Shown here: positions 30,282-32,879 of the stretch, one piece after another
How positions within the stretch are numbered: the first letter of the stretch is position 1
How the letters are laid out: the number at the start of each line of letters is the position of its first letter
Assembly (NCBI GenBank): GCA_964518505.1
Contig: CAZFGT010000004.1
Location: 29,114-93,113, forward strand
Source of the DNA: an uncultured Anaerolineaceae bacterium
GTDB lineage: Bacteria; Chloroflexota; Limnocylindria; Limnocylindrales; CSP1-4
Length of the DNA stretch: 64,000 bases
Direction: 5' to 3'
Program-made: the position numbers and the translations under genes
The notes under the pieces: generated by a model
Told to the model about the DNA's origin: nothing
The model's input: only the letters and a program-made list of their open reading frames with translations
Databases searched by the model: none

Positions 30282-32879
30282 TCAGCTGACCGTCGCTTCG
30301 CGAGCCAGGTGGCGCTGCATGGCCGCCTTGCGGGACAGGTTGACGCGACCCTGGCGGTCGATCTCGGTGACCACCACCATGATCTCGTCACCCACGGCCA
30401 CGACATCCTCCACGCTCGGCACGTGGTAATCGGCCAGTTCGCCGATGCGGACGAGGCCTTCCTTGCCGGGCAGGATCTCCACGAAGGCGCCGAAGGTCAT
30501 GAGGCGGGTCACCTTGCCCATGTAGAGGGCGCCGATCTCCACCTCGCGGGTGAGGCTCTGGATCCACTCGATGGCCTTCTTGGCGTTGTCCTGGTTGACG
30601 GCGGACACCTCGACCGAGCCGTCGTCCTCGACGTTGATCTCGGTCCCCGTCTCTTCCTGGATGCGCCGGATCATCGAGCCACCCTTGCCGATGATCTCGC
30701 GGATCTTCTCGGGGTTGATCTTGATGGTCGTGATGCGCGGGGCGAACGAACTGACGTCCGTGCGCGCCTCGGGGATGACGTCCACCATCTTGTCCAGGAT
30801 GGCCAGGCGGGCCACCCGGGCCTTCTCGAGACCGGTCCGGATGATCGCCTCGTTGATGCCCTGGACCTTGATGTCCATCTGCAGCGCGGTGATGCCGACG
30901 CGGGTGCCGGTGACCTTGAAGTCCATGTCACCGAACGCGTCTTCCTTGCCCAGGATGTCGGTCAGCACGGCGAACTTGCCGTCGGCCTCGCTGACGAGGC
31001 CCATGGCCGCGCCGGCCACCGGGGCGGTGATGGGCACGCCGGCATCCATCAGGGCCAGCGTGGAGCCGCAGGTGGAGGCCATCGAGGTGGACCCATTGGA
31101 GGTCACGCACTCGCTGACCAGGCGGATGACGTAGGGGAAATCACGCTCGGACGGCAGGACCGGGATGAGGGCCCGCTCGGCGAGCGCGCCATGGCCGATC
31201 TCGCGCCGTCCCGGACCGCGCATCGGCTTGTTCTCGCCGGTGCTGTAGGGCGGCATGTTGTAGTGGTGGATGTAGCGCTTGGAGATCTCGGGGCTGATCG
31301 TGTCGATGCGCTGCACGTCCGATGAGGGACCCAGCGTGGCCACGGTCAGGGCCTGGGTGTCGCCGCGGGTGAAGAGGGCCGAGCCGTGGGCGCGGGGCAG
31401 GAGCCCCACTTCCACGGTGATGGGCCGGATGGTGTCGAGGTCGCGGCCGTCCATGCGCACCCCTTCGGTGAGCACGAGGTGGCGCACGGTCTTCTTGTGC
31501 AGCAGGGTGGTCAGCGACTTGCTGAGCCGCGAGGTGCGGCGGGCCTTCTCCAGGGCCGCGTCGGCCTCGGCCGGCGGGGTGCCCTTGGCCCGTGCGTGGA
31601 TGGTCTCGGCGACGGCCTTCTTGAAGGCGTCGGCACGCACCGGCAGATCCTTGGCCAGCAGGAGCAGGAGCTCTGCGGTGGCCTCGGCGTCGGGCAGGGC
31701 GCGGTGGTTCGGTCGCGGCTCGAGGCCGAAGAAGGCGGTCAGGTCGGCCAGCTTGAAGACATCCTGGTCGGGCCAGGCCTCGCGGGCCAGCGTGAGCGTG
31801 TCCAGGTAGCGGCCCTGCTCGATGCGGGTGCCGTCACCAAGGGCCGCTTCGACGAAGCCCAGGTCGAACCCGACGTTGTGACCGACGAGCGTGGCGTCAC
31901 CGGCCCAGGCCAGGAACTGCCGGGCCGCCTCGGCGGGGGCCGGAGCGCCCTTGACGTCCTTGTCGGTCAGGCCGTGGAGCTGGTGGCCCACGATGGGCTG
32001 GCCGGGGTTGACGAGGGTGGACCAGCGGTCGGCGATCTTGCCGCCGTGGACCTTCACCGCGGCGATCTCGACGAGGCTGCCGATCTTGGCGTCGCGGCTG
32101 GTGGTCTCCACGTCGAACACGACGAACGGCTTCTTGGCCGCCATGTCGTCCAGGAACGTGAGCACCGAGTCGGTGCCCGGCTCCAGGTACGGGATGCGCT
32201 TGGCCTTGCCGAGCTCGCGCTGGAGCTGCAGCTGCAGGTCGATGATGGGGGCGAGCGAGCGGTGGCCGAAGAGGATGGCCTCGGCCATGACGGCCTCGGG
32301 CAGGATCTTGGCCCCGGCCTCCACCATCATGATGGCGTCGCGCGTGCCGGAGACGATGAGGTCCAGCTCGGACTCGGCCAGCTGGCTGTAGGTGGGATTG
32401 AGCACGAACTCGCCGTTGATGCGCCCGATCCGGGCGGCGGCGATCGGTCCCTGGAACGGGACGTCGCTGATGGTCAGGGCCGCCGACGCGGCGATCGTGC
32501 CGATGATATCGGGGTCGTTCTCCTGGTCCGTCGAGAGGACGGTCACCACGACCTGCACGTCATCCTTGTAGCCCTCGGGGAAGAGCGGCCGGATGGGGCG
32601 GTCGGTCAGGCGGGCGGCCAGGATGGCCGCCTCTGACGGGCGCGACTCACGCTTGATGAAGCCGCCGGGGATCTTGCCCGCGGCGTACATGCGCTCCTCG
32701 AAGTCCACCGTCAGGGGGAAGAAGTCGAGGCCCGGGCGCGGATCCGACCGGTTGGCCGTCCCCAGCACCATGGTGTCGCCGTAGCGGACGGTCACGGAGC
32801 CGCCGGCGAGCCGGGCGAGACGCCCGGATTCGATGGTCAGCGTACGTCCGCCGACCTCGGTCGAGAGTGTGACTGGCAT
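30282..32879 (-). CDS. pnp: Polyribonucleotide nucleotidyltransferase (PNPase) with inserted DnaQ-like DEDDh 3'-5' exonuclease domain
   Basis: 865 aa with RNase PH-1, RNase PH-2 (...[33 protein letters not shown]...), KH (...[20 protein letters not shown]...) and S1 domains. In the alpha-helical linker, ~aa 251-412 encode Exo I [9 protein letters not shown], Exo II [13 protein letters not shown] and Exo III [14 protein letters not shown]. Confidence 0.9.
   Translation of the reverse strand: [865 protein letters not shown]

Follow-up and report, generated by a model that had tools for sequence, protein, structure and literature searches.

Main

PNPase, among the most studied RNA-decay enzymes, is viewed as purely phosphorolytic, with a helical linker that lacks a clear role and is the most variable part of the protein. 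The canonical enzymes of E. coli, C. crescentus, S. aureus and S. antibioticus share one order: a first RNase PH core (PH1), the helical linker, a second core (PH2), KH and S1. Solved PNPase structures place the helical domain on the face of the ring away from KH/S1, where it borders a side pore leading to the active site (PMC2723993). A short oligonucleotide is left over from PNPase action (PMC11572968), and the DEDDh enzymes REXO2 and Orn clear short products in trans (PMC7261184, PMC9779919); in PNPase with Orn (E. coli) and PNPase/SUV3 with REXO2 (human mitochondria), the hydrolase is paired with the phosphorylase as a separate homodimer. The plant RNA exosome (Exo9 with active RRP41, together with Rrp44 and Rrp6) combines phosphorolysis by its PH ring with 3′-5′ hydrolysis by Rrp44 and Rrp6 (PMC5735172), and in eukaryotic Exo9 with Rrp6 (DEDD) and Rrp44 one hydrolytic partner is again of the DEDD superfamily.

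Here we describe a PNPase family in which a predicted DEDDh exonuclease domain is embedded in the helical linker of the polypeptide itself. In the literature searched, largely without subscription journals, we found no paper describing this fusion, in line with the original prediction that the architecture is undescribed.

An intact PNPase with an additional domain

In the window (the whole 64,000-nucleotide stretch of DNA analysed), pnp occupies 30282..32879 (−) and encodes 865 aa from an ATG start in a single frame, which has no internal stop and stays open through both insert junctions. Exactly this protein was called on five contigs from three assemblies (ENA ERZ27245391, ENA ERZ27245407 and JGI 3300031242). 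The three assemblies being independent, pnp is a single gene and no product of chimeric assembly; a frameshift or two-gene origin, which the original prediction had singled out for checking, is ruled out by the open frame together with the identical protein in all three. The GC content of the insert (0.70–0.72) is the same as that of its flanks.

The PNPase equivalog model TIGR03591 matched in two stretches and scored 948.4 bits against a cutoff of 525.05, which assigns the whole protein to this enzyme, and NF008805 scored 940.5 bits (cutoff 471). Pfam matches to the 865-aa protein comprised RNase_PH twice, RNase_PH_C (144–207), RNase_T (253–405), KH (717–774) and S1 (780–851), giving a pair of RNase PH-like cores with KH and S1 behind them. 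The first core (aa 1–207, 32259..32879 (−); PF01138 and, at 144–207, PF03725) has mean column conservation of 0.93 and 0.87. It is followed by aa 208–249 (32133..32258 (−)), which hold the core 1 end, a loop and helix 237–247, as delimited by alignment to S. aureus PNPase (5yjj) and an AF2 model. The second, catalytic core spans aa 484–700 (30780..31430 (−); Pfam and alignment to solved PNPases), the KH domain 30558..30731 (−) (PF00013, 50 bits) and the S1 domain 30327..30542 (−) (PF00575, 64.6 bits).

In the PH2 site, the metal ligands D647, D653 and K655, which fall within a 10-residue motif, and the phosphate-binding S597-T598-S599 are all present; the ligands of the E. coli enzyme are D486, D492 and K494 (PMC2723993), which correspond to these three, and the S-T-S motif and the rpsO-pnp operon are likewise shared with canonical PNPases. 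The Pfam matches and catalytic residues bear out the claim that the flanking PH1, PH2, KH and S1 parts are intact. A Foldseek search with the full-length model returned PNPases for all of its best 50 matches, and identity to solved PNPases was 36–40%, with target-normalised TM-scores of 0.70–0.87; the full-length AF2 monomer model is of moderate confidence (mean pLDDT 74), with S1 absent from it. Solved PNPases are 705–784 aa long, which confirms that the 865-aa protein is longer than canonical, and they align to it in two blocks (query 5–~235 and 460–854), separated by ~224 aa in the query against a normal ~66 aa. What canonical PNPases lack is a catalytic domain of 163 aa in the linker.

That domain covers aa 250–412 (31644..32132 (−)), as delimited by NF005906, PF00929 and AF2. 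The profile search suggested with the original prediction places a significant DEDDh match inside the PNPase: NF005906 (DEDD exonuclease) matches aa 250–412 with E = 3.2e-41, and RNase_T (PF00929) matches aa 253–405 with 82.6 bits (cutoff 24) over model positions 1–164 of 164. All three predicted exonuclease motifs translate exactly where they had been placed, with their catalytic residues: Exo I, FVVFDVETT (D256 and E258; 32100..32126 (−)), the 13-residue Exo II (D339; 31851..31889 (−)) and the 14-residue Exo III-epsilon motif (H392 and D397; 31665..31706 (−)). The insert therefore carries the D-x-E of Exo I, the aspartate of Exo II and the H-x4-D of Exo III that characterize DEDDh enzymes. 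An AF2 model of the domain (pLDDT 94.4, pTM 0.90) has the RNase H-like, DnaQ-type α/β fold. The HMM matches, the open frame, the structure prediction and the relatives described below agree that an intact DEDDh domain lies between the two RNase PH cores in one polypeptide, as had been proposed.

The same proposal had the exonuclease replacing the helical linker, which appears not to hold. The AF2 model has helices at 237–247 (helix 1 of the canonical linker), 394–431, 436–450 and 454–472, of which 394–431 is continuous, the Exo III helix running on into a linker helix. The retained part of the linker (aa 413–472, 31464..31643 (−)) is recognized by AF2 and by a weak match to the helical-domain model PF03726 (18.8 bits, cutoff 24.6; aa 451–480 to model positions 52–81), and solved PNPases align again from aa 460 onwards. 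The linker appears to be kept yet split, with ~60 aa of helices remaining, and alignment and model place the DEDDh domain after its first helix, between helix 1 and helix 2. From this insertion point the domain may sit at the far end of the helical bundle. Since the helical domain of solved PNPases faces away from KH/S1, a trimer would bear three hydrolytic sites on that side.

Type of the inserted domain

The original prediction considered the domain RNase T/oligoribonuclease-like, an identity rejected by sequence search, Foldseek and NCBIfam ranking alike, with PolC exonuclease, DinG exonuclease, CRISPR DnaQ, epsilon and DEDD+GIY-YIG proteins all ranking far higher. The best Foldseek match of the insert was the PolC exonuclease (r.m.s.d. 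2.1 Å over 166 columns, 35% identity, E = 6.6e-12); other nearest structures were the DinG exonuclease (with ssDNA), CRISPR DnaQ, epsilon (2.4 Å), Cas2-DEDDh and ExoX (2.8 Å), with RNase T (~7e-7) and Orn (4.5e-6) far behind PolC. A PDB sequence search gave 2.1e-24 for the PolC exonuclease against 4e-5 and 8.8e-4 for RNase T, and no RNase T or Orn model was among the best 25 of the 66 NCBIfam families matched. RNase T and Orn are obligate homodimers in which the partner subunit completes each active site, whereas the insert here belongs to a protein that would be expected to trimerize; Orn and REXO2 belong to a DEDDh subfamily other than that of the predicted insert.

Outside PNPases, the insert is closest in sequence to the exonuclease modules of DEDD+GIY-YIG proteins (46–48% identity), and further relatives include PolC, BRCT-fused exonucleases and DinG. 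The fold and the DEDDh pentad with H-x4-D are shared with the PolC exonuclease, Pol III epsilon and the N-terminal exonuclease of DinG, and the PolC exonuclease is also an insertion domain, lying inside the PHP domain (P0275, P0315). The hosts differ, being a polymerase or helicase in those cases and an RNA phosphorylase here, and the insert is without a polymerase-binding or clamp-binding tail. We rejected an assignment as an epsilon or PolC proofreading subunit: TIGR00573 (dnaQ) scored 69.5 bits, under its cutoff of 71.5, the PolC and dnaQ equivalogs were far under theirs, and the flanks are PNPase rather than PHP or polymerase. Membership of the DEDD+GIY-YIG family was also rejected, as NF005906 reached 141.3 bits (cutoff 495) over model positions 6–171 of 563 only and no GIY-YIG match was found; in that group (PRK07883; Longispora, Rubrobacteraceae) the exonuclease is a stand-alone N-terminal domain followed by a GIY-YIG nuclease, whereas here it is embedded. 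On sequence and modelled structure the insert is assigned to the epsilon/PolC/DinG/DEDD-GIY-YIG type, and the DEDD+GIY-YIG group is a plausible source of it.

Homologues and selection

The survey of relatives that the original prediction had proposed recovered the same architecture in 236 full-length homologues of 845–871 aa from Ca. Limnocylindria. D256, E258, D339, H392 and D397 are invariant in all 236. The same holds for T259, F338 and R393, which flank them in the motifs, and, in the PNPase part, for D647, D653, K655, S597–S599 and four arginines. PF00929 occurs with RNase_PH, KH and S1 in 120/120 best matches to the window protein and again in 120/120 best matches to P0242, a divergent Ca. 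Limnocylindrus member, and the architecture was present in 15 GTDB species genomes. The PNPase–DEDDh protein is therefore fixed across Ca. Limnocylindria (Chloroflexota) and not peculiar to this genome. Insert-less PNPases, sought with P0242 as the most divergent full-length member, were not found among its best 120 matches; as all of these bear the insert, the edge of the family against other Chloroflexota classes was not reached. A 301-aa junction query had returned proteins of ≤527 aa only, and the apparent absence of full-length relatives was rejected once the full-length queries gave 120/120 insert-bearing proteins. An exhaustive search with the insert alone detected a single PNPase-embedded family; P0247, P0309 and P0315, with matches at similar positions, proved to be tandem-exonuclease/GIY-YIG proteins, an unassigned protein and PolC fragments.

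The dN/dS of the insert in four close pairs (0.06, 0.045, 0.06 and 0.10) resembles that of the PH cores; across all locus pairs it was 0.45 with a median dS of ~0.6, and we used the close pairs alone, since saturation or bias affects synonymous sites in genomes of this composition (70% GC). Mean column conservation is 0.79 for the insert against 0.93–0.95 for the cores. Identity in the insert tracks identity in the core (r = 0.85), and the insert measures 160–165 aa throughout, which fits one ancient insertion, vertically inherited. Together, these comparisons show both predicted catalytic centres, the phosphorolytic PH2 site and the two-metal hydrolytic DEDDh site, to be intact and under purifying selection.

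One locus, L018, was considered as a catalytically degenerate copy, but its other frame encodes VVVDVETTG and a further 13-residue motif; with Exo I and Exo III intact in that frame, it carries a compensating indel pair in a long-read MAG. Truncation of this kind also affects L017 and many ENA gene calls. Public labels for the family vary, from ‘DNA polymerase III epsilon subunit family exonuclease’ and ‘exonuclease domain-containing protein, partial’ to ‘polyribonucleotide nucleotidyltransferase’.

The truncated and frameshifted public gene calls are what could be said for an artefact or selfish element, be it a chimeric assembly, two adjoining genes mistaken for one or a mobile or intein-like insert. 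Those calls stem from indel errors, as in L018; the insert matches the GC of its flanks, co-diverges with the core and, in NCBIfam and Pfam, hits nothing but exonuclease families, with inteins and transposases absent from the reported matches. This explanation is already refuted by the open frame, the three assemblies, the L018 frames and the 236 homologues.

Gene neighbourhood and leader

Directly upstream of pnp lies a gene call for rpsO (ribosomal protein S15; 32969..33238 (−)), which ends 89 nt from pnp and adjoins it in 14/14 related loci with upstream sequence. Because it always stands behind rpsO, the insert-bearing pnp is the housekeeping PNPase. The cluster in the window reads nusA-infB-rbfA-DHH-truB-ribF-rpsO-pnp, and its DHH/DHHA1 protein (35367..36395 (−); PF01368, 39.8 bits, and PF02272, 35.4 bits) corresponds to the NrnA-like protein that had been predicted at this position. 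The rpsO-pnp intergenic leader (32880..32968 (−)) folds into a hairpin that pairs the GGAGGA Shine–Dalgarno sequence (−46.7 kcal/mol, z = −2.07); this pairing between anti-Shine–Dalgarno and Shine–Dalgarno recurs in related loci, with differing loops. An Rfam scan of 28000..41000, leader included, matched no family. A family-4 UDG is encoded two genes downstream of pnp and was not detected in more distant loci.

Discussion

We favour, at a probability of roughly 55%, the reading that PNPase–DEDDh is a two-centre 3′-5′ exonuclease, phosphorolytic and hydrolytic, which arose by an ancestral insertion of an epsilon/PolC/DinG-type domain and is a single-chain analogue of the plant exosome. The ancestor of the Ca. 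Limnocylindria class would have acquired a monomeric DEDDh domain of this type inside the linker, so that the trimer carries three hydrolytic sites on the face opposite KH/S1. RNA would be threaded via KH/S1 to the phosphorolytic sites, and hydrolysis at the DEDDh sites would deal with 3′ ends that are poor substrates for PNPase, the likeliest being the short limit oligonucleotides it releases; other candidate roles are short 3′ tails beside structure and decay under phosphate scarcity. Completion of short oligonucleotides and a proofreading or DNA-end activity were also the candidate roles put forward in the original prediction. Against a role on RNA, its closest characterized relatives (the PolC exonuclease, epsilon, DinG, ExoX and Cas2-DEDDh) act mainly on DNA. 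The need for an oligonucleotide-finishing domain is also weakened by the NrnA-like DHH protein encoded five genes upstream, which could clear nanoRNA.

The DEDDh domain might instead act on DNA or RNA–DNA hybrids, in repair, 3′-end resection or R-loop removal, which we regard as unlikely though deserving of attention. Bacillus and mycobacterial PNPases act on DNA ends, and the relatives nearest in sequence (DEDD+GIY-YIG modules, PolC, BRCT-fused exonucleases and DinG) and in structure (PolC, DinG with ssDNA, epsilon, Cas2-DEDDh and ExoX) point the same way, as does the UDG gene in the window. B. subtilis DinG favours ssDNA and leaves linear ssRNA uncut in Mg2+; its trimming of RNA is limited to hybrids or to reactions with Mn2+ (PMC12525004). 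Set against this are the retention of KH, S1 and the phosphorolytic site, the position of the gene in a translation/RNA operon behind rpsO, the failure to detect the UDG neighbour in more distant loci and the lack of a physical tie between the DEDDh domain and DNA. DEDDh enzymes, moreover, commonly accept both sugars.

Two further readings we hold to be much less probable. Phosphorolysis can run backwards, and PNPases add tails to RNA in vivo (PMC5735172); a domain of proofreading (epsilon/PolC) type, placed in the linker along the NDP/Pi pore (PMC2723993), could edit or limit tailing by trimming NDP-built heteropolymeric 3′ tails or stalling 3′-terminal nucleotides. Template-independent tailing, however, offers nothing to proofread, and such trimming, which seems very unlikely as the main role, would be a sub-case of the two-centre exonuclease with a narrower substrate. 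That the domain is catalytically silent, a structural or regulatory module such as an RNA-binding or partner-docking platform that stands in for part of the helical domain, would suit its lower conservation and the variability of the helical domain among PNPases. It is highly improbable given that the five catalytic residues and T259, F338 and R393 are kept in 236/236 homologues at a dN/dS of 0.05–0.10; inactive DEDD domains normally lose their catalytic acidic residues.

Within the two-centre reading, it is conceivable, if rather doubtful, that the DEDDh trio forms a second, hydrolytic exit station opposite KH/S1, at which RNA is degraded fully to mononucleotides. The substrate or limit oligonucleotide would pass from the PH2 site, the side pore or the whole channel to the DEDDh sites, and a switch from phosphate-consuming to phosphate-independent decay would be possible. 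Such a station would make the enzyme a bacterial, single-polypeptide, convergent counterpart of exosome Exo9–Rrp44/Rrp6, fixed in an abundant oligotrophic class. The likeness to the exosome is convergent, not homologous: exosome hydrolases are separate subunits of RNase D-type DEDDy and RNase II kinds, whereas here a predicted epsilon-type DEDDh domain lies within each protomer.

For those who use public databases, the practical side is that annotation of Limnocylindria PNPase–DEDDh proteins is inconsistent. For RNA decay, a hydrolytic centre in the PNPase linker would, if confirmed, make this the first single chain to unite both 3′-5′ decay chemistries and a bacterial parallel to the pairing of a PH ring with hydrolytic exonucleases in eukaryotic exosomes. 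The Limnocylindria enzyme, carried by an uncultured class of Chloroflexota abundant in soil and freshwater, would offer a natural experiment on the function of the helical linker and of the side pore.

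One gene for a PNPase with an embedded exonuclease

The pnp ORF (30282..32879, minus strand) runs from an ATG start through 865 aa with no internal stops. Its product matched the TIGR03591 PNPase equivalog of NCBIfam in two stretches (948 bits against a cutoff of 525), and the NCBIfam DEDD exonuclease model NF005906 covered aa 250–412 (E = 3.2e-41), with PolC (1.2e-34) and DinG (1.8e-34) the next models on this insert. Pfam recovered two copies of RNase_PH, together with RNase_PH_C (aa 144–207), full-length RNase_T/PF00929 (aa 253–405; 82.6 bits against a gathering score of 24), KH (aa 717–774) and S1 (aa 780–851); the PNPase helical-domain model PF03726 gave a weak match at aa 451–480 only. 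The three exonuclease motifs quoted in the original prediction translated exactly where they had been placed (32100..32126, 31851..31889 and 31665..31706, minus strand), and the catalytic pentad of the insert is D256, E258, D339, H392 and D397. The intact DEDDh domain that had been read inside the PNPase was borne out by profile searches with E-values far beyond chance.

That the locus might be two genes is answered by the uninterrupted frame and by the public record, in which the exact 865-aa sequence is present; gene calls on five contigs, drawn from two ENA assemblies plus a JGI metagenome, give the identical protein beside unchanged neighbours. GC content is even across the insert and its flanks, and an artefact or selfish element is excluded as an explanation. 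Many public relatives are apparently truncated (180–530 aa), with collinear sequence giving way to Arg/Pro-rich out-of-frame tails; these short versions are indel errors, mostly in long-read metagenome-assembled genomes (MAGs). Gene calls cut or internally scrambled by indels were seen in the pnp loci L017 and L018, in the homologues P0016, P0061, P0064 and P0098 and in many other ENA proteins. Within one clade, a number of assemblies are interrupted at an identical point immediately ahead of Exo III, suggesting that errors arise systematically there. L018 was the sole locus seemingly without the catalytic residues. This loss was rejected, as the neighbouring frame encodes VVVDVETTG and a second, 13-residue stretch, leaving the Exo I and Exo III motifs intact; the locus has two out-of-frame stretches, after which the frame is restored.

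The insertion appears to retain the helical linker

Solved PNPases aligned to residues 5–~235 and 460–854 of the window protein, with helix 237–247 aligned to helix 1 of the Staphylococcus aureus helical domain. Between these stretches lie about 224 aa where solved PNPases have about 66; the DEDDh domain accounts for 163 of them, and about 61 aa remain. AF2 modelling gave helix 237–247, a DEDDh fold, a continuous helix 394–431 passing from Exo III into the linker, and helices 436–450 and 454–472 (full-length model of moderate quality: mean pLDDT 74, S1 unmodelled). From the alignment and these helices, the DEDDh domain separates linker helices 1 and 2, and the linker appears to be retained and not, as had been considered, replaced by the exonuclease. 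PolC-type exonucleases are themselves insertion domains, within PHP, so this fold tolerates nesting in a host domain.

The insert is of the epsilon/PolC/DinG type

A PDB sequence search ranked PolC exonuclease first (2.1e-24 and 8.5e-22), followed by S. thermophilus DnaQ, S. aureus DinG exonuclease, Cas2–DEDDh and epsilon, with RNase T no better than 4e-5. When a model of aa 228–475 (pLDDT 94.4, pTM 0.90) was submitted to Foldseek, PolC exonuclease was again top (rmsd 2.1 Å, 35% identity), ahead of DinG exonuclease, CRISPR DnaQ, Thermotoga maritima PolC exonuclease, epsilon, Cas2–DEDDh and ExoX; RNase T, TREX and Orn ranked far lower. HMMER with the insert alone against 1.84 billion representatives gave no more than 41 proteins with E ≤ 1e-30, and most of these were fragments from the same PNPase family. 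The nearest outsiders (33–48% identity) included the N-terminal exonucleases of DEDD+GIY-YIG proteins from Longispora and Rubrobacteraceae, with tandem-exonuclease/GIY-YIG/UVR proteins, BRCT-fused exonucleases, PolC and DinG as further outsiders. Together, these sequence and structure matches identify the insert as a monomeric epsilon/PolC/DinG-type DEDDh domain; the RNase T/oligoribonuclease-like affinity first proposed did not hold, as these three types outranked RNase T in both sequence and structure, and Orn in structure.

Proteins carrying several exonuclease domains also turned up among the distant homologues (the set including P0247, P0259 and P0261). One, of 1045 aa, combines GIY-YIG and UVR with three RNase_T domains in tandem; a PolC of 1631 aa has two exonuclease domains; and others join a pair of RNase_T domains to BRCT. 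Such multiplication of the exonuclease seems to be common in this DEDDh subfamily.

The architecture is conserved across one lineage

With the full-length query, RNase_T, RNase_PH, KH and S1 occurred together in all of the best 120 clusters at 90% identity (845–870 aa, 78–100% identical to the window protein), whose named members are Candidatus Limnocylindrales or Chloroflexota. The same architecture was found in 120/120 of the best matches when we searched with P0242, the most divergent full-length member, from the freshwater Ca. Limnocylindrus group. Scanning the species genomes of GTDB yielded 15 loci, all in Chloroflexota/Limnocylindrales MAGs except two implausibly named bins; Ca. Limnocylindrales is an order within the class Ca. 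Limnocylindria. Contigs with a Limnocylindria-type pnp, whose product reaches 97% identity to the window protein, also appeared in MAGs assigned to Sulfotelmatobacter, Dormiibacterota, Acidoferrum, Verrucomicrobiae, Polarisedimenticolia and Patescibacteria (loci L006 and L008; proteins P0014, P0023, P0057, P0095 and P0129), which look like mis-binned or mislabelled bins and not a wider distribution.

All five DEDDh residues were present in every one of 236 full-length homologues, as were each of the PNPase metal ligands, the phosphate-binding S-T-S and four arginines, and insert length stayed within 160–165 aa throughout. Insert identity to the window protein tracked core identity (r = 0.85), with mean column conservation of 0.79 in the insert versus 0.93–0.95 in the PH cores. 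For close relatives, dN/dS in the insert was 0.05–0.10 (0.008/0.138, 0.008/0.177, 0.017/0.284 and 0.060/0.602) and the cores were alike; deeper pairs were left out because their synonymous sites were saturated. From the distribution, the invariant residues, this covariation and dN/dS, we infer that the insertion happened once, long ago, and has since been passed on vertically, with selection maintaining its catalytic residues.

Public automatic names for the architecture (proteins P0121–P0495) are inconsistent. NCBI uses ‘polyribonucleotide nucleotidyltransferase’, JGI often ‘DNA polymerase III epsilon subunit family exonuclease’, and fragments are called ‘exonuclease domain-containing protein, partial’; the epsilon-subunit name is a misannotated PNPase.

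The gene occupies the housekeeping pnp locus

In the window, the cluster is the classical nusA-infB-rbfA-DHH-truB-ribF-rpsO-pnp, followed by asd, UDG and RNase J, and rpsO lies directly upstream of pnp in all 14 related loci with upstream sequence. This gene order indicates that the window gene is the housekeeping pnp orthologue. The DHH/DHHA1 gene (35367..36395, minus strand) sits between rbfA and truB, with stop and start codons overlapping on both sides; it was recovered upstream of truB in 9 of 15 related loci, distant ones included, most of the others having too little upstream sequence. Although Pfam scored it only modestly, at 39.8 and 35.4 bits, the NrnA-like protein that had been proposed in the same cluster as pnp is confirmed.

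RNase J (beta-CASP, RMMBL and RNase_J_C; 26631..28390, minus strand) lies three genes downstream of pnp, past asd and a family-4 UDG, with its neighbour at 28391..~29180 (minus strand). The mechanical ORFs here, of 887 and 389 aa, extend into adjacent genes; the true starts therefore lie further in, and the called genes of locus L001 are 586 and 263 aa. In L011, L014, L015 and L017, asd is 1.5–3.2 kb downstream of pnp, compared with about 80 nt, with extra DNA between. As asd is displaced and the flanks of the more distant loci yielded neither UDG nor RNase J, downstream synteny is not conserved, unlike rpsO-pnp.

The rpsO-pnp leader (32880..32968, minus strand) had a predicted fold of −46.7 kcal/mol (z = −2.07) and matched no Rfam family. 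One GC-rich hairpin follows rpsO directly; a second, GUCCUCC-loop-GGAGGAC, pairs the pnp Shine–Dalgarno sequence just upstream of the ATG, and such anti-SD/SD pairing recurs with differing loop sequences in the spacers of related loci (L004–L016). By analogy with the E. coli pnp leader, it may serve in translational control or autoregulation.

Two catalytic centres in one chain

The window protein has both catalytic centres intact in a single chain, each of them subject to purifying selection, and its insert is fused to the linker helices. In E. coli PNPase, the catalytic metal is held by D486, D492 and K494 (PMC2723993), whose counterparts here are D647, D653 and K655. The helical domain of the E. 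coli enzyme, on the torus face opposite S1/KH, contributes to a pore that opens another path to the active site, probably one for NDP and phosphate (PMC2723993). A trimer would therefore present three hydrolytic 3'–5' exonuclease sites on the face opposite RNA entry, where they could attack 3' ends left unfinished or unengaged by the phosphorolytic sites. PNPase leaves a short oligonucleotide (PMC11572968), and the DEDDh enzymes Orn and REXO2 clear such products in trans (PMC9779919, PMC7261184). Limit oligonucleotides would be the most economical guess at the substrate, with short tails beside structure and phosphate-independent decay as other candidates. The closest functional analogue, by convergent likeness, is the plant exosome, whose PH ring is phosphorolytically active and acts together with Rrp44, a hydrolytic enzyme, and Rrp6, a DEDD enzyme (PMC5735172).

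We favour this two-mode RNA exonuclease, taken as a whole, at a probability of about 0.55. Its main rival, that the DEDDh domain acts on DNA or R-loops, draws on characterised relatives that act mainly on DNA, on Bacillus subtilis DinG, which left linear ssRNA uncut with Mg2+ (PMC12525004), and on the NrnA-like protein of the same cluster, which might already clear nanoRNA; the host protein as a whole and its operon are, however, RNA-centred, and we hold action on DNA to be possible but rather unlikely. Tail trimming, a narrower variant of the two-mode RNA reading, is improbable, and a silent structural module, hard to square with catalytic residues kept in 236/236 homologues, slightly more so.

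Our literature search, with most subscription journals outside its scope, found no paper on a PNPase with an embedded DEDD/DnaQ domain. The window protein adds to a known enzyme a catalytic insertion that is both new and conserved, and is not a new kind of system; for specialists in RNA decay, it would be surprising and directly testable.
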